NCBI RefSeq assembly: GCF_036507355.1
Contig: NZ_AP027877.1
Reading direction: 5' to 3' (one strand)
DNA length: 64,000 nt
Source: Escherichia coli
Lineage (GTDB): Bacteria > Pseudomonadota > Gammaproteobacteria > Enterobacterales > Enterobacteriaceae
The position numbers and the translations under genes are program-made. Below are positions 15,738-42,997 of this stretch, piece after piece. The notes under the pieces were generated by a model that saw nothing but the letters and a program-made list of their open reading frames with translations, was not told the origin of the DNA and did not search any database. How positions within the stretch are numbered: position 1 is the first letter of the stretch; every line of letters begins with the position of its first letter.

Positions 15738-16831
15738 TAACGTCCCTCAAAATCTATACGCGGATCGACCAGCGTATAGCTGATATCACTGACAATATTC
15801 AGCAGCAGGCCAATCAGGGTGAAAATATACAAGGTACCAAACATTACAGGATAATCGCGCGAGACGGTCGCTTCGTAGCCCAGTAAGCCAAGACCATTGA
15901 GTGAAAACATCACCTCAATCAGCAGCGAGCCGGTAAAAAACATGCTGATAAACGTCGCCGGAAAACCGGCAATCACCAGCAGCATGGCGTTGCGGAACAC
16001 ATGTTTCCAGAGAATATTTTTTTCACTTACCCCTTTCGCACGCGCAGTCACCACGTATTGCTTGCGCACTTCATCAAGGAATGAGTTTTTGGTCAGCATG
16101 GTCAGCGCCGCAAAGCCACCAATCACTGTCGCCAGCACCGGCAGCGTGATATGACACAGATAATCGGTGATTTTCTGATACCACGGCAGCGAATCAAAGT
16201 TAGCGGAAACCAGGCCGCGTAGAGGGAACAGGTCGAAATAGCTGCCGCCTGCGAAGAAGACAATCAGCAGGATGGCAAACAAAAAGGCCGGAATAGCGTA
16301 GCCGATGATGATAAATGCGCTACTCCAGACGTCAAAGCGGCTCCCATTATAAACAGCTTTGCGAATGCCTAACGGAATCGACACCAGATAGATAATCAGC
16401 GTGCTCCACAATCCGAGGATGATGGAAACCGGCAGACTGTCTTTAATCAGCGTCAGCACCGAGGCGCTGCGAAACAGGCTATCGCCAAAATCAAAGCGGA
16501 TATAGTCCCAGAGCATTTTGAAGTAACGTTCGTGGATCGGCTTATCGAAACCGTAGCGATGAGTGATCTCGGCGATCACTTCTGGATCTAATCCGCGTCC
16601 GCCACGGTAATTACTGTCGCTGATATTACCGACGCCCGTTTGCGCATGGCTGGCGCGAACGCCTTCACCGCCTGCGCCGGGTAATACTCCGGCATTACCA
16701 AACTCAATGGCGGCGATGGCCTGGTCGACCGGACCGCCAGGCGCAATTTGCACGATGAAAAAGTTGATAGTGATAATCGCCCATAACGTTGGGATCACCA
16801 GCAACAGACGGCGAATCAGATAAGCGCCCAT
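15737..16831 (-). CDS. yejB: Peptide ABC transporter permease YejB (364 aa)
   Basis: Polytopic membrane ORF directly downstream of yejA. Confidence 0.9.
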
Positions 16832-29599: not shown

Positions 29600-31291
29600 A
29601 TGAAAACGCTGCTGATTATTGACGCTAATCTCGGTCAGGCACGCGCCTATATGGCGAAGACCCTGCTGGGCGCGGCGGCGCGAAAAGCAAAACTGGAAAT
29701 CATCGACAATCCGAACGACGCAGAAATGGCGATTGTTCTCGGTGATTCCATCCCGAATGACAGCGCGCTGAACGGTAAAAATGTCTGGCTGGGCGATATT
29801 TCCCGGGCAGTTGCGCACCCTGAGCTGTTCCTGAGTGAAGCCAAAGGCCATGCGAAACCTTACACTGCGCCGGTCGCTGCGACAGCACCGGTTGCCGCCA
29901 GCGGTCCGAAACGCGTAGTTGCGGTGACTGCTTGCCCGACTGGCGTAGCACACACCTTTATGGCGGCTGAAGCCATTGAAACCGAAGCGAAAAAACGTGG
30001 CTGGTGGGTGAAAGTTGAAACCCGTGGTTCTGTTGGTGCGGGTAATGCAATCACCCCCGAAGAAGTAGCCGCAGCGGATCTGGTGATTGTGGCGGCAGAT
30101 ATCGAAGTGGATCTGGCGAAATTTGCTGGTAAACCGATGTATCGTACCTCTACCGGTCTGGCGCTGAAGAAAACCGCGCAGGAACTGGATAAAGCGGTTG
30201 CTGAAGCAACGCCGTATGAACCGGCGGGCAAAGCTCAAACGGCGACCTCTGAAGGTAAGAAAGAGAGTGCAGGCGCATACCGTCACTTGCTGACGGGCGT
30301 CTCTTACATGCTGCCGATGGTCGTTGCAGGTGGTCTGTGTATCGCGCTTTCTTTTGCTTTTGGTATCGAAGCGTTTAAAGAGCCGGGTACGTTGGCAGCG
30401 GCGCTGATGCAGATTGGTGGTGGTTCAGCCTTTGCGCTGATGGTGCCGGTACTGGCAGGTTACATTGCCTTCTCCATTGCCGATCGTCCGGGTCTCACGC
30501 CGGGTCTGATTGGCGGTATGCTGGCGGTCAGCACCGGTTCTGGCTTCATTGGCGGTATTATTGCGGGCTTCCTGGCTGGTTACATTGCGAAGTTAATCAG
30601 TACGCAACTGAAACTGCCACAGAGTATGGAGGCGCTGAAACCGATCCTGATCATTCCGCTAATTTCCAGTCTGGTGGTCGGTCTGGCGATGATCTACCTG
30701 ATCGGTAAACCGGTTGCTGGCATTCTCGAAGGGTTGACTCACTGGCTGCAGACCATGGGGACTGCGAATGCGGTTCTGCTGGGGGCGATCCTCGGTGGCA
30801 TGATGTGTACTGACATGGGCGGTCCGGTAAATAAAGCAGCGTACGCATTCGGTGTGGGTCTGCTGAGTACTCAAACCTATGGCCCGATGGCGGCGATTAT
30901 GGCGGCAGGTATGGTGCCACCGCTGGCAATGGGTCTGGCAACAATGGTGGCGCGTCGCAAATTCGACAAAGCGCAGCAGGAAGGTGGCAAAGCCGCTCTG
31001 GTTCTTGGTCTGTGCTTTATTTCGGAAGGTGCAATTCCGTTTGCTGCTCGTGATCCGATGCGTGTGCTGCCGTGCTGTATCGTGGGTGGGGCGCTGACTG
31101 GCGCAATCTCAATGGCGATTGGTGCGAAACTGATGGCACCGCACGGTGGTCTGTTTGTTCTGCTGATCCCTGGCGCTATTACGCCGGTACTGGGTTACCT
31201 GGTAGCAATTATTGCCGGTACGCTGGTGGCGGGTTTGGCCTATGCCTTCCTGAAACGTCCGGAAGTGGACGCAGTAGCGAAAGCCGCGTAA
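29600..31291 (+). CDS. fruA: Fructose PTS IIB'BC component FruA (563 aa)
   Basis: Duplicated IIB domains followed by IIC membrane domain; CPTGVAHT phosphorylation-site motif. Confidence 0.93.
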   Translation: MKTLLIIDANLGQARAYMAKTLLGAAARKAKLEIIDNPNDAEMAIVLGDSIPNDSALNGKNVWLGDISRAVAHPELFLSEAKGHAKPYTAPVAATAPVAASGPKRVVAVTACPTGVAHTFMAAEAIETEAKKRGWWVKVETRGSVGAGNAITPEEVAAADLVIVAADIEVDLAKFAGKPMYRTSTGLALKKTAQELDKAVAEATPYEPAGKAQTATSEGKKESAGAYRHLLTGVSYMLPMVVAGGLCIALSFAFGIEAFKEPGTLAAALMQIGGGSAFALMVPVLAGYIAFSIADRPGLTPGLIGGMLAVSTGSGFIGGIIAGFLAGYIAKLISTQLKLPQSMEALKPILIIPLISSLVVGLAMIYLIGKPVAGILEGLTHWLQTMGTANAVLLGAILGGMMCTDMGGPVNKAAYAFGVGLLSTQTYGPMAAIMAAGMVPPLAMGLATMVARRKFDKAQQEGGKAALVLGLCFISEGAIPFAARDPMRVLPCCIVGGALTGAISMAIGAKLMAPHGGLFVLLIPGAITPVLGYLVAIIAGTLVAGLAYAFLKRPEVDAVAKAA

Positions 31292-31445
31292 TAAAAGGTG
31301 TGTTACAGGGCAGAATTTTACTGCCCTGTATCATTGGATGAGCGCAAAGAGAATGACCGGTTTGTGAATGTAATTTTATGAATTTAAATGGTTTTATCTT
31401 TCAGTAGAAACCTGAAACGTTCATCAAACACTAAGGTTATTTCCT

Positions 31446-31476
31446 CAAGGGCAGATTCTTTTCTGCCCTTTTTTAG
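31446..31476 (+). terminator. Rho-independent terminator downstream of fruA
   Basis: aagggcagattcttttctgccctttttt: GC stem followed by a T-run. Confidence 0.7.
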
Positions 31477-31714
31477 TGTTCATGTTCTGTGCATCCCGTC
31501 ACAAATTCCTCGCTTTTGTAATTCTGGCATTTAATCGCATTTTGTGAGCCTGCTCAAATCTGCCCGCTTTGCCTCTCTGGCGGCAATTTACTTTACGTAA
31601 AACATGCATACTATGAGCACATGTTTAAATATGAACACATGTTTAAACTGTCTTTGCAGTATCTATATTCTTGTGGATTGACAGGGTTGGTAATTTTTTA
31701 CCAGAGGACGTGCT

Positions 31715-32656
31715 ATGCGCGAAAAGGATTATGTCGTAATTATAGGCTCGGCGAATATTGATGTCGCCGGATATTCACATGAATCATTAAATTATGCGGA
31801 TTCAAATCCAGGTAAAATAAAATTTACGCCTGGTGGGGTAGGGCGCAATATTGCACAAAACCTGGCGTTGCTGGGTAATAAAGCCTGGCTACTGAGCGCC
31901 GTAGGCAGTGATTTTTATGGCCAATCGCTGCTAACGCAAACCAATCAATCTGGCGTTTATGTCGATAAATGCCTGATTGTGCCGGGAGAAAATACGTCGA
32001 GCTATTTATCATTACTCGATAATACCGGTGAAATGCTGGTTGCTATAAATGACATGAATATTAGCAACGCTATTACAGCTGAATATCTCGCACAGCACCG
32101 TGAATTTATTCAGAGGGCAAAGGTCATTGTCGCGGACTGTAATATCAGTGAAGAGGCACTGGCATGGATTCTGGATAATGCTGCCAACGTACCCGTATTT
32201 GTCGATCCGGTTTCAGCGTGGAAATGTGTCAAAGTGCGCGACCGTCTAAATCAGATCCACACTCTGAAGCCAAACCGCCTTGAAGCGGAAACACTGAGTG
32301 GGATTGCGCTGTCAGGGCGTGAAGATGTGGCAAAAGTTGCTGCCTGGTTCCATCAACATGGCCTGAACCGACTGGTATTGAGCATGGGCGGCGATGGCGT
32401 TTATTACAGCGATATCAGCGGTGAAAGTGGCTGGTCTGCGCCGATCAAAACCAATGTTATTAATGTTACCGGAGCGGGCGATGCCATGATGGCGGGACTT
32501 GCTTCGTGTTGGGTAGACGGAATGCCGTTTGCCGAATCTGTTCGTTTCGCACAGGGATGTTCGTCAATGGCGCTCTCCTGTGAATACACCAATAACCCCG
32601 ATTTATCGATTGCCAACGTTATATCGTTAGTGGAGAACGCAGAATGTCTGAATTAA
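31715..32656 (+). CDS. psuK: Pseudouridine kinase PsuK/YeiC, pfkB family (313 aa)
   Basis: pfkB sugar kinase with GGVGRNIA and GAGDAMMAG motifs; first gene of psuKGT. Confidence 0.9.
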   Translation: MREKDYVVIIGSANIDVAGYSHESLNYADSNPGKIKFTPGGVGRNIAQNLALLGNKAWLLSAVGSDFYGQSLLTQTNQSGVYVDKCLIVPGENTSSYLSLLDNTGEMLVAINDMNISNAITAEYLAQHREFIQRAKVIVADCNISEEALAWILDNAANVPVFVDPVSAWKCVKVRDRLNQIHTLKPNRLEAETLSGIALSGREDVAKVAAWFHQHGLNRLVLSMGGDGVYYSDISGESGWSAPIKTNVINVTGAGDAMMAGLASCWVDGMPFAESVRFAQGCSSMALSCEYTNNPDLSIANVISLVENAECLN

Positions 32657-33582
32657 AAATTTCCCCTGAATTATTACAAATTTCCCCGGAAGTGCAGGAC
32701 GCTTTAAAAAACAAAAAACCGGTTGTGGCGCTGGAATCGACCATTATTTCTCACGGGATGCCGTTCCCACAAAATGCCCAGACCGCAATTGAAGTTGAAG
32801 AAACTATTCGTAAACAGGGCGCAGTACCTGCCACTATCGCCATTATTGGTGGCGTGATGAAAGTGGGTTTAAGCAAAGATGAAATTGAATTACTGGGTCG
32901 TGAAGGGCATAACGTGACCAAAGTTAGTCGTCGCGATTTACCTTTTGTTGTTGCCGCCGGAAAAAATGGCGCAACCACTGTGGCTTCAACGATGATTATT
33001 GCGGCGCTTGCCGGAATTAAAGTATTTGCCACCGGGGGAATTGGTGGTGTTCATCGCGGGGCGGAACATACCTTCGATATTTCTGCCGATTTGCAAGAAC
33101 TGGCAAATACTAATGTCACCGTTGTTTGTGCCGGGGCGAAATCTATTCTCGATTTAGGATTAACCACTGAGTATTTAGAAACCTTCGGTGTGCCGTTAAT
33201 TGGCTATCAGACTAAAGCGCTGCCTGCGTTTTTCTGCCGCACCAGCCCGTTTGACGTCAGCATTCGTCTCGACAGCGCCAGCGAAATTGCCCGTGCAATG
33301 GCGGTGAAATGGCAAAGCGGGCTGAACGGTGGCCTCGTGGTAGCGAACCCGATCCCGGAACAGTTTGCTATGCCGGAACACACTATCAATGCGGCGATCG
33401 ATCAGGCGGTAGCTGAAGCTGAAGCGCAGGGTGTTATTGGTAAAGAAAGTACGCCATTCCTGCTGGCGCGCGTTGCTGAGCTGACCGGCGGTGACAGCCT
33501 GAAATTCAACATCCAGCTGGTGTTCAACAACGCCATTCTGGCGAGCGAAATTGCCAAAGAATATCAGCGTCTCGCGGGTTAA
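32644..33582 (+). CDS. psuG: Pseudouridine-5'-phosphate glycosidase PsuG/YeiN (312 aa)
   Basis: Indigoidine-synthase-A-like ORF; 13-nt overlap with psuK. Confidence 0.9.
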   Translation: MSELKISPELLQISPEVQDALKNKKPVVALESTIISHGMPFPQNAQTAIEVEETIRKQGAVPATIAIIGGVMKVGLSKDEIELLGREGHNVTKVSRRDLPFVVAAGKNGATTVASTMIIAALAGIKVFATGGIGGVHRGAEHTFDISADLQELANTNVTVVCAGAKSILDLGLTTEYLETFGVPLIGYQTKALPAFFCRTSPFDVSIRLDSASEIARAMAVKWQSGLNGGLVVANPIPEQFAMPEHTINAAIDQAVAEAEAQGVIGKESTPFLLARVAELTGGDSLKFNIQLVFNNAILASEIAKEYQRLAG

Positions 33583-33675
33583 TTTCTGACGGGCAGAAAG
33601 CCGTCGCCCGTACTGATCATACATACCGAAACCTGGCGCTGACGCCGGGTTTACTGGCATGAAGGGAAAATCATT

Positions 33676-34926
33676 ATGGATATAATGAGAAGTGTTGTGG
33701 GGATGGTGGTGTTACTGGCAATAGCATTTCTGTTGTCGGTAAATAAAAAGAGCATCAGTTTGCGCACGGTTGGAGCCGCACTGCTGCTGCAAATCGCTAT
33801 TGGTGGCATCATGCTCTATTTTCCGCCGGGAAAATGGGCAGTAGAACAGGCGGCATTAGGCGTTCATAAAGTGATGTCTTACAGTGATGCCGGTAGCGCC
33901 TTCATTTTTGGTTCGCTGGTTGGGCCGAAAATGGATGTCCTCTTTGACGGTGCGGGTTTTATCTTCGCCTTTCGCGTACTTCCGGCGATTATCTTCGTCA
34001 CTGCGCTCATTAGTCTGCTGTACTACATTGGCGTGATGGGGCTGCTGATTCGCATCCTTGGCAGCATTTTCCAGAAAGCCCTCAACATCAGCAAAATCGA
34101 ATCTTTTGTCGCAGTCACCACTATTTTCCTCGGGCAAAATGAGATCCCGGCGATCGTTAAACCGTTTATCGATCGCATGAATCGAAACGAGTTGTTTACC
34201 GCAATTTGTAGCGGGATGGCGTCCATTGCTGGTTCGATGATGATTGGTTATGCCGGAATGGGCGTACCAATTGACTACCTGTTAGCGGCATCGCTGATGG
34301 CGATCCCCGGCGGTATTTTGTTTGCACGAATTCTTAGTCCAGCAACCGAGCTTTCGCAGGTCACGTTTGAAAATCTGTCGTTCAGCGAAACGCCGCCAAA
34401 AAGCTTTATCGAAGCAGCGGCGAGCGGTGCGATGACCGGGCTGAAAATCGCCGCCGGTGTGGCGACGGTGGTCATGGCGTTTGTCGCAATTATTGCGCTG
34501 ATTAATGGCATTATTGGCGGAATTGGCGGCTGGTTTGGTTTTGCCAATGCCTCTCTGGAAAGTATTTTTGGCTATGTGCTGGCACCGCTGGCGTGGATCA
34601 TGGGTGTGGACTGGAGTGATGCCAACCTTGCGGGTAGCCTGATTGGGCAGAAACTGGCGATTAACGAATTCGTCGCTTACCTGAGTTTCTCCCCATACCT
34701 GCAAACGGGCGGCACGCTGGAAGTGAAAACCATTGCGATTATCTCCTTTGCGCTTTGTGGTTTTGCTAACTTTGGTTCTATCGGTGTTGTCGTTGGGGCA
34801 TTTTCGGCTATTTCGCCAAAACGTGCTCCGGAAATCGCCCAGCTTGGTTTACGGGCGCTGGCAGCAGCAACGCTTTCCAACCTGATGAGCGCGACCATTG
34901 CCGGGTTCTTTATTGGTTTAGCTTGA
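33676..34926 (+). CDS. psuT: NupC-family nucleoside transporter PsuT/YeiM (416 aa)
   Basis: Concentrative nucleoside transporter fold; close paralog of the nupX product in this window. Confidence 0.9.
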   Translation: MDIMRSVVGMVVLLAIAFLLSVNKKSISLRTVGAALLLQIAIGGIMLYFPPGKWAVEQAALGVHKVMSYSDAGSAFIFGSLVGPKMDVLFDGAGFIFAFRVLPAIIFVTALISLLYYIGVMGLLIRILGSIFQKALNISKIESFVAVTTIFLGQNEIPAIVKPFIDRMNRNELFTAICSGMASIAGSMMIGYAGMGVPIDYLLAASLMAIPGGILFARILSPATELSQVTFENLSFSETPPKSFIEAAASGAMTGLKIAAGVATVVMAFVAIIALINGIIGGIGGWFGFANASLESIFGYVLAPLAWIMGVDWSDANLAGSLIGQKLAINEFVAYLSFSPYLQTGGTLEVKTIAIISFALCGFANFGSIGVVVGAFSAISPKRAPEIAQLGLRALAAATLSNLMSATIAGFFIGLA

Positions 34927-36815: not shown

Positions 36816-36973
36816 GAGGGGCAGAAAGCCGTCGCCCAATATGACATGAAGAGATAATAACTATGGATGTCATGAGAAGTGTTCTGGGAATGGTGGTATT
36901 GCTGACGATTGCGTTTTTGGTGATGCTGCCAACTTACTGATTTAGTGTATGATGGTGTTTTTGAGGTGCTCCA

Positions 36974-37249
36974 GTGGCTTCTGTTTCTATCAGCTGTCCC
37001 TCCTGTTCAGCTACTGACGGGGTGGTGCGTAACGGCAAAAGCACCGCCGGACATCAGCGCTATCTCTGCTCTCACTGCCGTAAAACATGGCAACTGCAGT
37101 TCACTTACACCGCTTCTCAACCCGGTACGCACCAGAAAATCATTGATATGGCCATGAATGGCGTTGGATGCCGGGCAACAGCCCGCATTATGGGCGTTGG
37201 CCTCAACACGATTTTACGTCACTTAAAAAACTCAGGCCGCAGTCGGTAA
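36974..37249 (+). CDS. insA: IS1 transposition inhibitor InsA
   Basis: 91-aa ORF identical to the insA at 1926-2201. Confidence 0.9.
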
Positions 37250-37671
37250 CCTCGCGCATACAGCCGGGCAGTGACGTCATCGTCTGCGCGGAAATGGACG
37301 AACAGTGGGGCTATGTCGGGGCTAAATCGCGCCAGCGCTGGCTGTTTTACGCGTATGACAGGCTCCGGAAGACGGTTGTTGCGCACGTATTCGGTGAACG
37401 CACGATGGCGACGCTGGGGCGTCTTATGAGCCTGCTGTCACCCTTTGACGTGGTGATATGGATGACGGATGGCTGGCCGCTGTATGAATCCCGCCTGAAG
37501 GGAAAGCTGCACGTAATCAGCAAGCGATATACGCAGCGAATTGAGCGGCATAACCTGAATCTGAGGCAGCACCTGGCACGGCTGGGACGGAAGTCGCTGT
37601 CGTTCTCAAAATCGGTGGAGCTGCATGACAAAGTCATCGGGCATTATCTGAACATAAAACACTATCAATAA
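37168..37671 (+). CDS. insB: IS1 InsB reading frame (InsAB' transposase by frameshift)
   Basis: 167-aa ORF identical to the insB at 1504-2007. Confidence 0.9.
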
Positions 37672-38945
37672 GTTGGAGTCATTACCTGCGTTTTTACTGT
37701 CAGTAAACAAGAAGAAGATCAGCCTGCGTACCGTTGGCGCGGCGTTAGTGTTACAGGTTGTGATTGGCGGGATTATGCTTTGGTTACCGCCAGGGCGTTG
37801 GGTCGCTGAAAAAGTCGCTTTTGGCGTGCATAAAGTGATGGCGTACAGCGATGCAGGTAGCGCATTTATCTTCGGTTCGCTGGTCGGGCCGAAAATGGAC
37901 ACGCTGTTTGATGGCGCAGGATTTATCTTTGGTTTCAGGGTGTTACCGGCAATTATCTTCGTCACCGCGCTGGTGAGTATTCTCTATTACATCGGTGTGA
38001 TGGGGATCTTAATTCGCATTCTCGGCGGTATATTCCAGAAAGCATTAAATATCAGCAAGATCGAGTCATTCGTCGCGGTCACTACCATTTTCCTCGGGCA
38101 AAACGAAATTCCGGCGATCGTCAAACCCTTTATCGATCGTCTGAATCGCAATGAATTATTTACAGCGATTTGTAGTGGCATGGCCTCGATTGCTGGTTCG
38201 ACAATGATTGGTTACGCCGCACTGGGCGTGCCTGTGGAATATTTGCTGGCGGCATCGTTAATGGCGATCCCAGGCGGGATCTTGTTTGCCCGCCTGCTAA
38301 GCCCGGCTATGGAATCTTCGCAGGTTTCTTTTAATAACCTCTCTTTCACCGAAACACCGCCAAAAAGCATTATTGAAGCTGCCGCGACAGAGGCAATGAC
38401 CGGGCTGAAAATCGCCGCAGGTGTGGCGACAGTAGTGATGGCATTTGTCGCCATCATTGCGTTAATTAACGGTATTATCGGCGGCGTTGGCGGCTGGTTT
38501 GGTTTTGAACATGCCTCGCTGGAATCCATTTTAGGTTACCTGCTGGCCCCACTGGCGTGGGTGATGGGTGTTGACTGGAGTGATGCGAATCTTGCCGGGA
38601 GTTTGATTGGTCAGAAACTGGCAATAAATGAATTTGTCGCTTATCTCAATTTCTCACCCTATCTGCAAACGGCTGACAAGCTGGATGCTAAAACCGTGGC
38701 GATTATTTCCTTCGCGTTGTGCGGTTTCGCTAACTTTGGTTCTATCGGGGTGGTGGTGGGGGCGTTTTCTGCGGTTGCGCCACACCGTGCGCCGGAAATC
38801 GCCCAACTTGGTTTACGCGCGCTGGCGGCGGCGACACTTTCTAATCTGATGAGTGCCACCATTGCCGGGTTCTTTATTGGTTTAGCGTAGTGTGCGATTT
38901 ATGAGCCGGATAATATGCGGTCAAGCGTCGAATCCGGCAACATTG

Positions 38946-40034
38946 TTACACCATTGGCATTAATGAAAGCGCGTTATCGGCAGACAAGGTAGGGTTATTT
39001 AAGCTGCCGCTGGCGCGTGAAATTGCCGCGCAGGCCATCGCAAAACGGGCGCTGTCACGGAAATTGTTTCCTTCCAGAAAGCTATATACCAGGCCCGCCA
39101 TAAAACCATCGTCAGCACCAAAACTGTCTACTGTCGTATGCGCTGGTGCGGTCAGCAAAAATTGTTCTCCATCCTTTTCGCTGCAATAAACTGACTCATC
39201 GGGCAAATAAACAAACAGTTGCTGAACACCTTGCTGATGCAACGCATTCACTGCAGCATTACGGTCAGCATCGCTGGTGATCGCCTGTCCCCATAAAATT
39301 TCCAGCTCCGGTAAAGTGGGTTTCAGGGTGTGAATATGCGCCAGCCAGTGTTTGATTTTGCCCGCTTTGAATTCTGAAACGGTATCGACAAACACCGGGA
39401 TCTCATCAGCGAGGGTAAAGACCCATTCCAGCGCCTCGGCTGTCAGGTTGCAATCAGCCAGTACCACGCCCGCATGACGAAGTAAATCGCGCGACCCGTT
39501 CAGTAGTTGCGGTGTCAACTGTTCCAGCAGATGGGTATCGTTAATCGCCAGCACGGTTTGATCGTCTCGATTGGCAATTGCCAGATACGTCGATGTGCTT
39601 TGACCATGCAAACGAACGCAGCCGGAGACATTCACGCCGGCACGGCGCGTTTCTTCCAGGAGCATTTCGCCATAAAAGTCATCGCCAATCACTGAAAGCA
39701 AATGGACGTCGCGGCCTAACAGCGCCAGATTGTGGGCGATATTGCGTCCAACGCCGCCTGCCGAGCAATGAATTGTACCGGGATGAGAAGCCGATTGCGG
39801 GTAACGGATATCCGCCATCCCGCGAATATCCATATTGATTGTCCCCACCACTACGCAGTATTCCTGCTCGGTGAGAATGTAACCTTTGCCTTTAATCCGG
39901 CCTTTGCGCATTAAATCCATAATATGCGCCGCAACGCGCGAACGGCTGATTTGCAGCATGTCCGCAATTTCGTTCTGCTGAATCAGCGGGTTACGCCGTA
40001 AAATTGCAAGGATCTCCTTTTCCCGGTTATTCAT
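38946..40034 (-). CDS. yeiI: HTH-domain / pfkB-family sugar kinase fusion protein YeiI (362 aa)
   Basis: N-terminal about 55 aa resemble a winged-helix DNA-binding domain (EILAILRRNPLIQQNEIADMLQISRSRVAAHIMDL); the remainder is a PsuK-like kinase (GGVGRNIAHNLALLG). Confidence 0.85.
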   Translation of the reverse strand: MNNREKEILAILRRNPLIQQNEIADMLQISRSRVAAHIMDLMRKGRIKGKGYILTEQEYCVVVGTINMDIRGMADIRYPQSASHPGTIHCSAGGVGRNIAHNLALLGRDVHLLSVIGDDFYGEMLLEETRRAGVNVSGCVRLHGQSTSTYLAIANRDDQTVLAINDTHLLEQLTPQLLNGSRDLLRHAGVVLADCNLTAEALEWVFTLADEIPVFVDTVSEFKAGKIKHWLAHIHTLKPTLPELEILWGQAITSDADRNAAVNALHQQGVQQLFVYLPDESVYCSEKDGEQFLLTAPAHTTVDSFGADDGFMAGLVYSFLEGNNFRDSARFAMACAAISRASGSLNNPTLSADNALSLMPMV

Positions 40035-40036
40035 CT

Positions 40037-40894
40037 TCAGGCTACCGCTTTTTCAGTTTGTTGCGCTTTCAGCCAGGCGATCTCTTCTGCCCAGATATCC
40101 GGGTTGATGGTTTCGAGGATCAGCGGAATGCCGTCGAAACGGTCGTCCTGCATGATCCAGCGGAACGCATCATGACCGATATTGCCTTCACCGAGGCTAT
40201 GATGGCGGTCAACGCGGCTGCCAAAGGTGCTTTTCGCATCGTTAAGGTGCATCCCGCGCAGATACTTAAAGCCGACAATACGGGCAAAATCAGCGAACGT
40301 TTTCTCGCATTCGGCTGGAGTACGCAAATCATACCCGGCAGCGAAAGCATGGCAGGTATCAATGCAGACGCCGACACGGGATTTATCTTCCACGCCGTCG
40401 ATAATCGCCGCGAGATGTTCGAATTTAAACCCTAAGTTACTGCCCTGACCGGCGGTGTTTTCAATCACCGCGGTCACACCTTGAGTTTTATCCAGCGCAA
40501 TGTTGATGGATTCGGCAATACGCGCAAGGCAATCCTCTTCTGAAATCTGCATCAGATGGCTGCCAGGGTGGAAGTTGAGCAAAGAAAGCCCCAGCTGTTC
40601 GCAACGCTGCATTTCATCTATAAAGGCATCGCGCGATTTTTCCAGAGCTTCAGTGACCGGATGTCCGAGGTTAATCAGATAGCTGTCGTGGGGAAGAATT
40701 TGCGCCGATGTGTAGTGATATTTTTCACAGGCGGCTTTGAATTCATCGATGGTTTGCGTCGTGAGCGGTGCGGCACGCCACTGACGTTGGTTTTTGGTGA
40801 ACAAGGCAAACGCGGTTGCGTCGATTTCGGCGGCGCGAATTGCGGCATTTGCCAGACCGCCAGCAGCACTAACGTGCGCTCCAATGTATTTCAT
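40037..40894 (-). CDS. nfo: Endonuclease IV (285 aa)
   Basis: [39 protein letters not shown]... AP-endonuclease family 2. Confidence 0.93.
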
Positions 40895-40967
40895 GCGAGG
40901 ACTCCTGTTAAACCCGCTGGAGGAAAACGGTAATGATAGCGGGTTAACAGGAGCAAGATGTAGTGGT

Positions 40968-42017
40968 TTATGCGATGACGCTTTGAATCACATAGTTAAT
41001 CGCACCACCACCAACAATCAGCCAGGCAAACAGTACCAGTGCCATCAGCAGAGGTTTCGCCCCGGCTTTTTTCAGCGCGCTGACGTGAGTGGTCAGACCC
41101 AGCGCCGCCATCGCCATTGCCAGCAGGAAGGTATCCAGCGTTACCAGCATGTTCACCACGCTCTGCGGTAACAGGTGGAACGAGTTAAAGATGGCAACTA
41201 CGATGAACAAGATGGCAAACCACGGAATAGTGATTTTGCTTTTCTCGCCGCTGTTCGCCCCAGACAGCTGTTTAACACGCGCCGCCAGCAGGATGAGGAA
41301 CGGAGCCAGCATCATCACGCGCAGCATTTTGGAAATAACTGCTGCGTTTTCCGCATCCGGGCTGATGGCATGACCTGCCGCCACCACCTGCGCCACTTCG
41401 TGCACAGTAGAACCAATGTAGATACCGAAAGTTTCCGGACTAAACCATTGAGACATCAGCGGATATATCGCCGGGTAGAGGAAAATCGCGACGGTCCCGA
41501 AGATAACAACGGTTGCAACAGCCACGGTTACTTTACTGGCTTCCGCTTTCACTACCGGCTCAGTCGCCAGTACCGCGGCAGCACCACAAATACTGCTACC
41601 GGCACCGATCAACCAGCTGGTGTGCTTATCCAGACCAAACACTTTCTGCCCCAGGAAGCAAGCCAGCAGGAAGGTACTGGACAGCGTCAGCACGTCAATG
41701 ATGATCCCACTGATACCGACATCGGCAATTTGCGAGAACGTCAGACGGAAGCCATAAAGAATGATACCCAGACGTAATAAATATTGCTTGGCAAACAGCA
41801 CACCACCGTCACAGCTTTTCCAGATGTGCGGATAGATGGTGTTGCCTAAAACCATCCCCAACAAGATTGCGAGGGTGAGGGCACTAAACCCGGCACCCGC
41901 AACCGCGGGAATGGAACCACCCCACAGGGCGACCCCGGTGATAACTGCACTCAGGGCTAACCCCGGAATAAAATGCCACAGTGTACGATGTTGTTTCTGT
42001 AAGGTGATATTCGTCAT
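40968..42017 (-). CDS. yeiH: UPF0324 inner membrane protein YeiH (349 aa)
   Basis: Polytopic membrane ORF divergent from yeiE. Confidence 0.85.
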
Positions 42018-42115
42018 AACCCTCTCCTTTAACCGGGCATAAGGTTACGACTAACTGGTTTAAAAATAAAATTGATTATATATTTATAATTAATCTTTAT
42101 AAGTGGTAAGCGACT

Positions 42116-42997
42116 ATGCACATCACCCTCCGGCAGTTGGAAGTTTTTGCAGAAGTATTGAAAAGTGGATCAACCACCCAGGCGTCGGTGATGCTGGCGT
42201 TGTCGCAATCAGCAGTGAGCGCAGCCTTGACCGACCTGGAAGGGCAACTTGGCGTGCAACTGTTTGATCGCGTGGGGAAAAGACTGGTTGTTAATGAACA
42301 CGGGCGGCTGCTCTATCCGCGTGCGTTGGCATTGCTTGAACAGGCGGTTGAAATCGAACAACTGTTTCGCGAAGACAACGGCGCGATTCGTATCTATGCC
42401 AGTAGTACCATCGGTAACTACATTCTGCCTGCAGTTATCGCCCGTTATCGCCATGATTATCCGCAGTTGCCGATTGAACTTAGCGTTGGGAACAGCCAGG
42501 ACGTGATGCAAGCGGTGCTGGATTTCCGCGTTGATATTGGCTTTATTGAAGGACCGTGCCACAGCACTGAAATCATTTCTGAACCGTGGCTGGAAGACGA
42601 GCTGGTGGTTTTCGCCGCGCCGACTTCGCCGTTGGCCCGTGGTCCGGTCACCTTAGAACAGCTGGCCGCTGCGCCGTGGATCCTGCGTGAACGCGGCTCC
42701 GGCACGCGGGAGATTGTCGATTATCTGTTGCTGTCACATTTACCGAAGTTTGAGATGGCGATGGAATTAGGTAACTCCGAGGCAATCAAACATGCGGTGC
42801 GTCATGGGTTGGGAATTAGTTGCCTGTCGCGACGGGTGATTGAAGACCAATTGCAGGCAGGCACATTAAGTGAAGTTGCGGTCCCTCTGCCGCGCCTGAT
42901 GCGTACGTTGTGGCGTATACATCATCGGCAAAAACACCTTTCCAACGCGCTACGGCGCTTTCTGGACTATTGCGATCCCGCGAATGTACCGTGTTAA
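42116..42997 (+). CDS. yeiE: LysR-type transcriptional regulator YeiE (293 aa)
   Basis: N-terminal LysR HTH ([38 protein letters not shown]) and C-terminal substrate-binding domain. Confidence 0.88.

Follow-up and report, generated by a model that had tools for sequence, protein, structure and literature searches.

The yeiI gene was analysed within a stretch of 64,000 nucleotides from an Escherichia coli genome (contig NZ_AP027877.1), which is referred to below as the window. It is located at positions 38946-40034 on the minus strand, where E. coli genomes carry the annotation yeiI, 'sugar kinase', between nfo and nupX, and the region was present in 5,419 of the 5,426 complete E. coli genomes compared. 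Its product, YeiI, joins a winged helix-turn-helix (wHTH) domain at its N-terminus to a PfkB-family domain that is related to the pseudouridine kinase PsuK, an architecture that is already annotated in databases. One published compilation of hypothetical E. coli transcription factors includes YeiI (PMC6055005). Its function was called unknown, and the protein uncharacterized, in 2022 (PMC9061257) and again in 2025 (PMC12506659), which agrees with an earlier sequence-only reading of this locus, in which the function was said not to be established. On the evidence described here, YeiI probably binds a pair of operators at the psuK promoter and represses psuKGT, the operon for the pseudouridine kinase, glycosidase and transporter. 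The gene and its domains are as follows.

38946-40034, minus strand: yeiI coding sequence, 362 amino acids, wHTH plus PsuK-like PfkB (open reading frame, annotation, Pfam HTH_24 and PfkB, NCBIfam PRK09954 at 812 bits)
39873-40034, minus strand: winged helix-turn-helix domain, residues 1-54 (Pfam HTH_24, AlphaFold2 fold, clade conservation)
39906-39944, minus strand: predicted recognition helix RSRVAAHIMDLMR, residues 31-43 (AlphaFold2 helix; invariant in the YeiI clade; co-varies with the operator half-site)
38991-39863, minus strand: PfkB (PsuK-like) domain, residues 58-348, the predicted nucleoside sensor (Pfam, Foldseek, retained pseudouridine and ribose contacts)

A winged helix fused to a PsuK-like domain

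The fusion of a DNA-binding domain to a kinase, which had been proposed from the sequence alone, was confirmed in the open reading frame by Pfam. HTH_24 (PF13412) matched residues 1-48 (E=1.2e-10; 41.2 bits against a cut-off of 21.9) and PfkB (PF00294) matched residues 58-348 (E=4e-68). The N-terminal domain of about 55 residues had been described as MarR/winged-helix, of which the winged helix stood and the MarR assignment did not. The structure prediction that had been suggested for this domain gave, in an AlphaFold2 model with a mean pLDDT of 91.8, a fold within residues 3-54 of three helices (3-14, 20-27 and 31-43) and a beta-hairpin wing (47-54). The HTH scored below the Pfam cut-offs for MarR (16.7 vs 24.6 bits) and MarR_2 (19.0 vs 27), and the model has no MarR dimerization helices flanking the HTH, the domain being only about 54 residues long. 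As the C-terminus is PfkB and a RAM (AsnC_trans_reg) domain is absent, YeiI is not a member of the Lrp/AsnC regulators. A Pfam search of YeiI gave no match to ROK (PF00480) even at E<=1, and the NCBIfam profile search gave a weak match to the N-terminus of BirA. Among solved structures, no chain covered residues 1-54, and the isolated HTH found only weak matches in the PDB sequences (E of at least 0.04).

The second domain has a ribokinase-like fold together with the GG dipeptide (G93-G94) and the catalytic D309 of PfkB proteins. The nearest solved structure to YeiI is E. coli PsuK (E=2e-66 over residues 55-359, 38% identity), and Foldseek superposed the YeiI model on EcPsuK with a TM score of 0.96 and an rmsd of 1.5-2.0 Å, returning PsuK and ribokinases at probability 1.0. 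Within NCBIfam, YeiI has an equivalog model of its own, PRK09954 (812 bits), and scores 254 bits against the PsuK equivalog NF007355 (EC 2.7.1.83), below the cut-off of 540.

The HTH is the best-conserved part of the protein. Mean identity within the YeiI clade is 94% for the HTH and 81% for the kinase domain, with 82% for PsuK in matching species pairs, and the same pattern is seen family-wide, for example 67% vs 33% between E. coli and Alkaliphilus.

A predicted tandem operator at the psuK promoter

Upstream of psuK, which in the window is HTH-less and overlaps psuG, the following features were identified.

31715-34926, plus strand: psuK (31715-32656), psuG (32644-33582) and psuT (33676-34926), the predicted target operon (open reading frames, E. 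coli annotation, tblastn context)
31587-31614, plus strand: psuK promoter, with -35 TTTACT at 31587-92, a 16-nt spacer and -10 TACTAT at 31609-14 (conservation; TTTACT box of fused psuK promoters)
31615-31626, plus strand: predicted YeiI operator site 1, GAGCACATGTTT, over -10/+1 of the psuK promoter (tandem pair, conservation)
31633-31644, plus strand: predicted YeiI operator site 2, GAACACATGTTT, 18 bp downstream of site 1 (tandem pair, conservation)
31488-31558, plus strand: two CRP-like boxes, TGTGCATCCCGTCACA at 31488-31503 and TGTGAGCCTGCTCAAA at 31543-31558 (conserved across genera in the psuK upstream alignment)

The E. coli sites were found by phylogenetic footprinting combined with the core AACAnnTGTT. 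The stricter CAAAC-N4-GTTTG, with at most one mismatch allowed, gave no promoter match in the window; the E. coli sites deviate from it at the flanking bases. The operator scan of this genome covered the 64 kb of the window, in which 31615-31644 was the sole tandem pair, with 0 mismatches to the generalized core (ARCAnnTGYT) and 0.06 expected. It sits 70-100 nt upstream of psuK, just downstream of the TTTACT and TACTAT boxes. In an eight-sequence alignment of the psuK upstream region (E. coli, E. albertii, three Citrobacter, Enterobacter and Leclercia), the conserved blocks were the operator pair, the -35 box and the two CRP-like boxes. We take these last two to resemble the CRP consensus, and they suggest catabolite control of pseudouridine catabolism.

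The operator pair was present in all eight YeiI-clade loci as well as in Affinibrenneria and a metagenomic relative, and is identical in E. coli K-12. Operator and YeiI-type gene co-occurred in 11/11 loci, while the one HTH-less psuK examined that has no YeiI-like neighbour (locus L078) had no operator. Elsewhere in the window, no operator, single or paired, was found upstream of nfo, yeiI, yeiH/yeiE, yeiL/rihB, rihB/nupX or psuG/psuT, or in the psuT-yeiL intergenic region. Single sites at 15995 and 42356, which are inside coding sequences, and a weak pair inside yeiE, which is not conserved, were rejected as chance matches.

A recurrent single-nucleotide polymorphism (SNP) at -126 of psuK has been reported in lineages from the long-term stationary-phase evolution of E. 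coli (PMC7858067). It was considered as an operator mutation and rejected as such, since it maps to 31589, the third base of the -35 hexamer, changing TTTACT to TTGACT, and is likely to be a promoter-up change. The position of this SNP supports the position assigned to the psuK promoter. With this assignment the operators cover -10/+1 to about +22, which is a repressor position.

Fused wHTH-PsuK proteins in other bacteria

YeiI is not alone in its architecture. Full-length wHTH-PfkB fusions made up 213 of the 244 homologs collected, and the alignment starts at residue 1 for most of the top 150 representatives (at 50% identity). In databases these proteins are called 'PfkB family carbohydrate kinase' or 'winged helix-turn-helix transcriptional regulator'. 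A set of 77 genomic loci was compared, from Proteobacteria, Firmicutes, Actinobacteria, Spirochaetes and Bacteroidetes. Outside the YeiI clade, psuG lies directly 3' of the fusion gene on the same strand in approximately 67 of 70 loci, followed in Serratia and Hafnia by psuT as well. The fusion gene is therefore the first gene of a psuK-psuG operon, which indicates that the fused protein is the pseudouridine kinase in those organisms.

A palindrome, CAAACA-NN-TGTTTG, is found upstream of the fused genes, usually as two copies 18-19 bp apart that adjoin a TTTACT -35-like box. CAAAC-N4-GTTTG was 62-fold enriched in the 200 nt upstream, and of the spacers only 4 and 0 were enriched. Tandem pairs of AACAnnTGTT, 18-19 bp apart and at -29 to -68 of the fusion start, were found at 29 of 69 loci, compared with one in 1.25 Mb of flanking DNA. 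With the more general core ARCAnnTGYT, which also covers the TAAGCA half-sites of Firmicutes and Atopobium, pairs were found at 39 of 69 loci and 16 times in the flanks.

The half-sites follow the class of the recognition helix. Helices ending in VAGHIMNL occur with YAAACA, those ending in VAVHI(S/T)NL with TAA(A/G)CA, and the YeiI helix (RVAAHIMDL) with T(G/A)A(A/G)CA and a Y-R centre. Three residues of this helix, R33, A36 and D40, are specific to the YeiI clade, and the fused PsuKs differ at these positions. Across phyla, the tandem motif was found only beside genes encoding a wHTH of this family. One such gene encodes a fusion with dead catalytic motifs (P0179, locus L082: GAAS, SxxE and Asn196 lost), where the tandem pair (1381-1414 of that locus) precedes a downstream operon for a protein of unknown type, a PRAI-like protein, an Fe-ADH and an IU nucleoside hydrolase. 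As the pair tracks the helix class and also precedes the operon next to P0179, the motif appears to mark targets of the wHTH. P0179 itself may represent a pseudo-kinase regulator that arose independently in the wHTH-PfkB family.

YeiI shares with the fused wHTH-PsuKs the two-domain layout, the length (approximately 360 amino acids), an HTH of the HTH_24 type that is 55-74% identical with an SRSxVAxHIxxL recognition helix, and the PsuK-like PfkB domain. It also shares the operator type with its 18-19 bp tandem geometry and, in Enterobacterales, the TTTACT -35 box. The fused proteins differ from YeiI in having canonical motifs, in being encoded first in psuK-psuG(-psuT) and in having the operator at their own promoter, that is in cis. 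YeiI has altered motifs and is encoded apart from the operon. Its tandem operator at a psuK-containing operon, 31615-31644 in the window and its counterparts in all YeiI-type loci, would be acted on in trans.

Some further observations were made on this family. The fused PsuKs of Yersiniaceae (P0065 and P0073; Serratia/Hafnia loci L002, L013, L016 and L018) are annotated with a nine-residue N-terminal extension, MFKNKQVS-. The DNA of this extension, ATGTTTAAAAACAAACAAGTG, is the operator itself, so that the true start is probably the downstream ATG, giving 363 amino acids. In seven Aeromonas loci (L030, L033, L035, L038, L041, L044 and L075), the CAAAC-GTTTG half-sites are separated by a spacer of 0 and not 4, as in GACAAACGTTTGCAATTGGATGTTTGTC, and the fused proteins have a divergent recognition helix, SRSALASHISSL. 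These sites could represent a variant operator geometry or a PurR-box-like site. In the metagenomic YeiI-like locus (L086), a second operator pair, CTAACACTTGACCACAAAAGAACAAGTGTTTA, is present at 919-950 near a 112-aa open reading frame and a LysR gene, which hints that the regulon of that organism extends beyond psuKGT.

Residue changes in the kinase domain

The sequence-only reading had taken the second domain for a complete pfkB-family kinase paralogous to PsuK. Paralogy is borne out by the 38% identity, and completeness is not, as three nucleotide-site motifs of YeiI differ from those of PsuK.

39108-39119, minus strand: GADD, residues 306-309, in place of the PfkB anion-hole/catalytic GAGD (G255D in 100% of the YeiI clade and 0% of 161 canonical homologs)
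39306-39317, minus strand: T240-L-P-E243, in place of the NxxE Mg2+/phosphate motif (motif alignment)
39192-39203, minus strand: P278-D-E-S281, at the position of the small ATP loop GxxG, motif lost (motif alignment; loop described in PMC9247573)

The fused PsuKs retain canonical GxGD, NxxE, GxxG, DSNPG and xxDM. YeiI lacks the GxGD, NxxE and GxxG of PfkB kinases. The replacements do not occur in the 161 canonical homologs and are fixed throughout the YeiI clade, a narrow group of Escherichia, Salmonella, Citrobacter, Enterobacter, Leclercia and relatives that invariably has GADD, TxxE, (A/S)S(H/N)PG and INDT. An early-branching YeiI-like ortholog has GIDN, in which the catalytic Asp is absent. 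In PsuK, Asn187 sits at the putative Mg2+ site (PMC9247573) and the D256A change lowers kcat 3,280-fold (PMC9061257).

In order not to select residues by eye, all 54 columns that are at least 80% conserved in the 161 canonical sequences were compared, with residue roles for PsuK taken from PMC9061257 and PMC9247573. In YeiI, 37 of the 54 columns are unchanged, including D164, K185, E190 and D256 (PsuK numbering). The contacts to pseudouridine and ribose are kept (N14, D16, G41, N45, Y97, N112, S30' from the partner subunit, N143 and K170), and the pseudouridine-recognition set is intact except for M114, which is T167 in YeiI. The eight switched columns are D29A, G105D, M114T, N187T, A191L, G225 and G228 (of GxxG), and G255D. 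With the nucleoside contacts unchanged and GxxG, NxxE and GAGD switched, it appears that the nucleoside pocket has been preserved and the site for ATP, Mg2+ and phosphoryl transfer remodelled. A psuK mutant fails to use pseudouridine (PMC12506659), so YeiI does not substitute for PsuK.

Gene neighbourhood and history of yeiI

In every YeiI-type locus, yeiI is convergent with a psuKGT operon in which psuK has no HTH (yeiI> <psuT<psuG<psuK), and this includes two loci without nfo. It is not in an operon with psuG. In E. albertii, Citrobacter, Enterobacter, Leclercia, Affinibrenneria and the metagenomic relative, yeiI directly abuts psuT, and only in E. coli and the window do nupX, rihB and yeiL lie between them, with nupX also convergent to yeiI. 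NupX (37673-38890) is 88-89% identical to PsuT (33676-34926). The restriction of nupX-rihB-yeiL to E. coli-type loci (cf. L005-L011) makes it look like a recent insertion that includes a psuT duplicate. In the window there is an IS1 at 36919-37686, with insA/insB open reading frames, terminal inverted repeats and a 9-bp target duplication, TGCGTTTTT, and a second copy is present at approximately 1489-2256. The first copy is inserted at about codon 17 of nupX, which is therefore disrupted in this strain; another E. coli locus (L001) has an intact nupX of 416 aa.

On its other side, yeiI is preceded by nfo, the gene for a DNA-repair endonuclease.

40037-40894, minus strand: nfo, directly upstream of yeiI with a 2-nt gap (TGA-AG-ATG) (open reading frames)

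A promoter/terminator scan of 38800-42200 was unremarkable, with no terminator between nfo and yeiI. Together with the 2-nt gap, this indicates that yeiI is probably co-transcribed with nfo. The spacing is the same in E. coli, E. albertii, Citrobacter, Enterobacter and Leclercia, which makes translational coupling likely. Affinibrenneria and the metagenomic relative (L085 and L086) have no nfo upstream of their yeiI-like genes, and the psuTGK partner is still present.

In a neighbour-joining tree of the kinase domain, HTH-less PsuK grouped with the fused PsuKs of other Enterobacterales with 100% bootstrap. YeiI was a sister lineage with a stem of 0.20 vs 0.11 and an internal topology that mirrors that of PsuK. 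A relic of an HTH was searched for upstream of psuK by tblastn with the HTHs of Serratia, Yersinia, Photorhabdus and YeiI against 30800-32000 and by three-frame translation, and only the start of the kinase domain matched.

Proposed mechanism

The best reading of these data is that the predicted target of YeiI is psuKGT and not rihB-nupX. The sequence-only reading had listed psuK only as one of several promoters, whereas psuKGT emerges here as the conserved partner of yeiI. Its suggestion that YeiI is a one-component regulator appears to hold, given the family operator at an HTH-less psuK promoter, the synteny and the residue pattern.

The ancestor would have been a bifunctional wHTH-PsuK of the kind still found in many phyla, a kinase autoregulating psuK-psuG through two tandem palindromes. 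A duplication of this gene would have occurred in the ancestry of Enterobacteriaceae and a few relatives. One copy, PsuK, would have lost the HTH and remained an enzyme, keeping the promoter and operators. The other, YeiI, would have evolved faster, retaining the HTH and the pseudouridine pocket and remodelling its site for ATP, Mg2+ and phosphoryl transfer. We propose, somewhat more tentatively than the core claim, that wHTH-PsuK is a multi-phylum family of enzyme-repressors that couples pseudouridine phosphorylation to autoregulation by way of the conserved tandem operator, and that in Enterobacteriaceae duplication and subfunctionalization left PsuK as the pure enzyme and YeiI as a pseudo-kinase repressor.

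In PsuK, pseudouridine, and not uridine or cytidine, closes the dimer from approximately 66 Å to 51 Å through Ser30 of the partner subunit (PMC9061257). This serine is conserved as Ser83 in YeiI, where a short linker connects the wHTH with the first core strand. YeiI would dimerize via a beta-clasp as in PsuK, occupy both operators, from -10/+1 to about +22, and block transcription. Pseudouridine would be sensed through Ser83 of the partner subunit, whereupon the dimer would close, the N-terminal winged helices would re-orient and the DNA would be released. The CRP-like sites upstream would add catabolite control of psuKGT, and yeiI would be expressed with nfo, without an autoregulatory site. 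DNA binding by YeiI, the sign of the regulation, the effector, and a weak or absent kinase activity are what we infer from sequence and structure, and our confidence in pseudouridine as the effector and in the loss of kinase activity is lower than in the core claim. In 1970, Breitman reportedly linked growth on pseudouridine to elevated pseudouridylate synthetase activity in mutants, which would fit an operon that is normally repressed.

Alternative explanations

Several points weigh against repression of psuKGT by YeiI as outlined above. In our search of the literature, which left out subscription literature and regulon databases, no chromatin immunoprecipitation (ChIP), systematic evolution of ligands by exponential enrichment (SELEX) or expression data for yeiI were found, nor any literature on psuKGT regulation, the role of YeiI or the fused wHTH-PsuK family. 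Single 12-mer sites are not significant in the window, with 13 found against 8.9 expected, so the argument depends on the tandem arrangement, position and conservation of the pair. About 30 of the 69 fused loci fall below our operator thresholds, and the Aeromonas loci carry the spacer-0 variant. The psuK SNP is also listed as a parental difference (PMC7858067), and being a change in the -35 box and not in the operator it carries no information on YeiI. The basal position of YeiI has a bootstrap of only 73% in what is a simple neighbour-joining tree. An unrelated protein could in principle bind the E. coli operator. The catalytic Asp309 is retained along with Lys238, Asp217 and Glu243, and purifying selection acts on the kinase domain as strongly as on PsuK (81% vs 82%), so YeiI may be an active kinase with an altered mechanism or substrate. 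Finally, Thr167 (PsuK Met114) and Ala82 (Asp29) contact the base pocket and substrate loop, and the effector may thus not be pseudouridine itself.

That YeiI is still bifunctional, an active kinase for pseudouridine or a related modified nucleoside or C-nucleoside that also binds DNA, giving E. coli two kinases of differing substrate range, is rather unlikely, although it is the alternative that we take most seriously. The retained catalytic residues together with the GG motif and the equal constraint favour it, and judged by its sequence the kinase domain is not decaying. Also, the M114T and D29A changes could retune specificity and the invariant D308 could have a new catalytic or metal-binding role. 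Against this, GAGD, NxxE and GxxG have been changed independently and fixed, the GIDN ortholog lacks the residue whose replacement is so costly in the D256A variant of PsuK, a psuK mutant cannot use pseudouridine, and YeiI falls far short of the PsuK equivalog cut-off. It would be more surprising still if the N-terminal domain did not bind DNA and served a metabolic kinase only as an oligomerization or substrate-lid module. Nothing specific speaks for this beyond the occasional reuse of winged helices for protein contacts. Against such a role, no other part of the protein is as conserved as the HTH, either within the clade or across the family, a cognate palindrome accompanies the family and varies together with the helix, and PsuK functions and dimerizes without an HTH.

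The alternatives on the DNA side concern which protein binds which site. The psuK pair might be bound by a different protein or be a non-functional relic, with YeiI acting elsewhere in the genome or being regulatorily inert. The 64-kb extent of the scan and the three positions at which the YeiI recognition helix differs from those of the fused PsuKs leave some room for this, but we consider it improbable. A non-functional pair would not have been kept in about six genera with both half-sites changing in step, the operator accompanies a YeiI-type gene in every case and is missing at the psuK of L078, and across phyla the motif lies only beside genes for this wHTH. The remaining alternative, favoured in the sequence-only reading, is that YeiI is a local regulator of rihB-nupX, or of ribonucleoside catabolism in general, that responds to the substrate or product of the kinase. 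Physical proximity in E. coli and a common nucleoside theme are consistent with it, yet it is very doubtful, as yeiI and nupX are convergent, the nupX-rihB-yeiL block is missing from most genera that contain YeiI, the yeiL-rihB, rihB-nupX and psuT-yeiL intergenic regions showed no operator, and nupX is disrupted by IS1 in the window.

Significance and comparison with known systems

If YeiI does repress psuKGT, a specific function that is open to testing would be assigned to an E. coli y-gene, and pseudouridine catabolism would have its missing regulator named, together with the operator, promoter and likely effector. E. coli would have a dedicated sensor for a modified nucleoside that is released by RNA turnover, and machine-learning annotations of YeiI as a second pseudouridine kinase would be corrected. 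It would also be a well-resolved case in which a bifunctional enzyme-repressor gave rise to a separate enzyme and pseudo-enzyme sensor. A pseudouridine-responsive repressor and its operator could be used as a biosensor in strains for pseudouridine production, which several groups are engineering via psuG/psuK. The PfkB fold would, moreover, join the short list of enzyme-derived one-component regulators (ROK repressors, BirA, NadR and PutA).

The closest known relative is E. coli PsuK (YeiC; PDB 7VKP, 7VTD and 7VVA), which has in common with YeiI the PfkB fold, the ribose and pseudouridine contacts, the catalytic Asp, Lys185 and the locus. By analogy, a beta-clasp dimer of the PsuK type is expected for YeiI. 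YeiI differs from PsuK in its N-terminal wHTH, in GADD, TxxE and PDES for GxxG, in M114T and D29A, and in being encoded outside the psuKGT operon.

The HTH_24 Pfam model and the three helices plus wing are shared with the Lrp/AsnC regulators, but YeiI has neither their RAM/AsnC effector domain nor the dimerization helices of MarR. In the ROK repressors, a kinase-fold domain serves as the ligand sensor, and the ROK family also has enzymatically active paralogs. NagC, Mlc and XylR thus resemble YeiI in combining an N-terminal winged helix with a sensor of sugar-kinase fold. Their fold is, however, the ROK/actin-like ATPase fold and that of YeiI is PfkB/ribokinase, so this is an analogy and not membership.

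BirA, NadR, PutA and the archaeal RbkR are enzymes with an N-terminal HTH or wHTH that repress the genes of their own pathways according to substrate or product occupancy. They would match the ancestral wHTH-PsuK state proposed here, although their catalytic folds differ. Unlike these bifunctional proteins, YeiI looks like the regulatory half that was left after a duplication.

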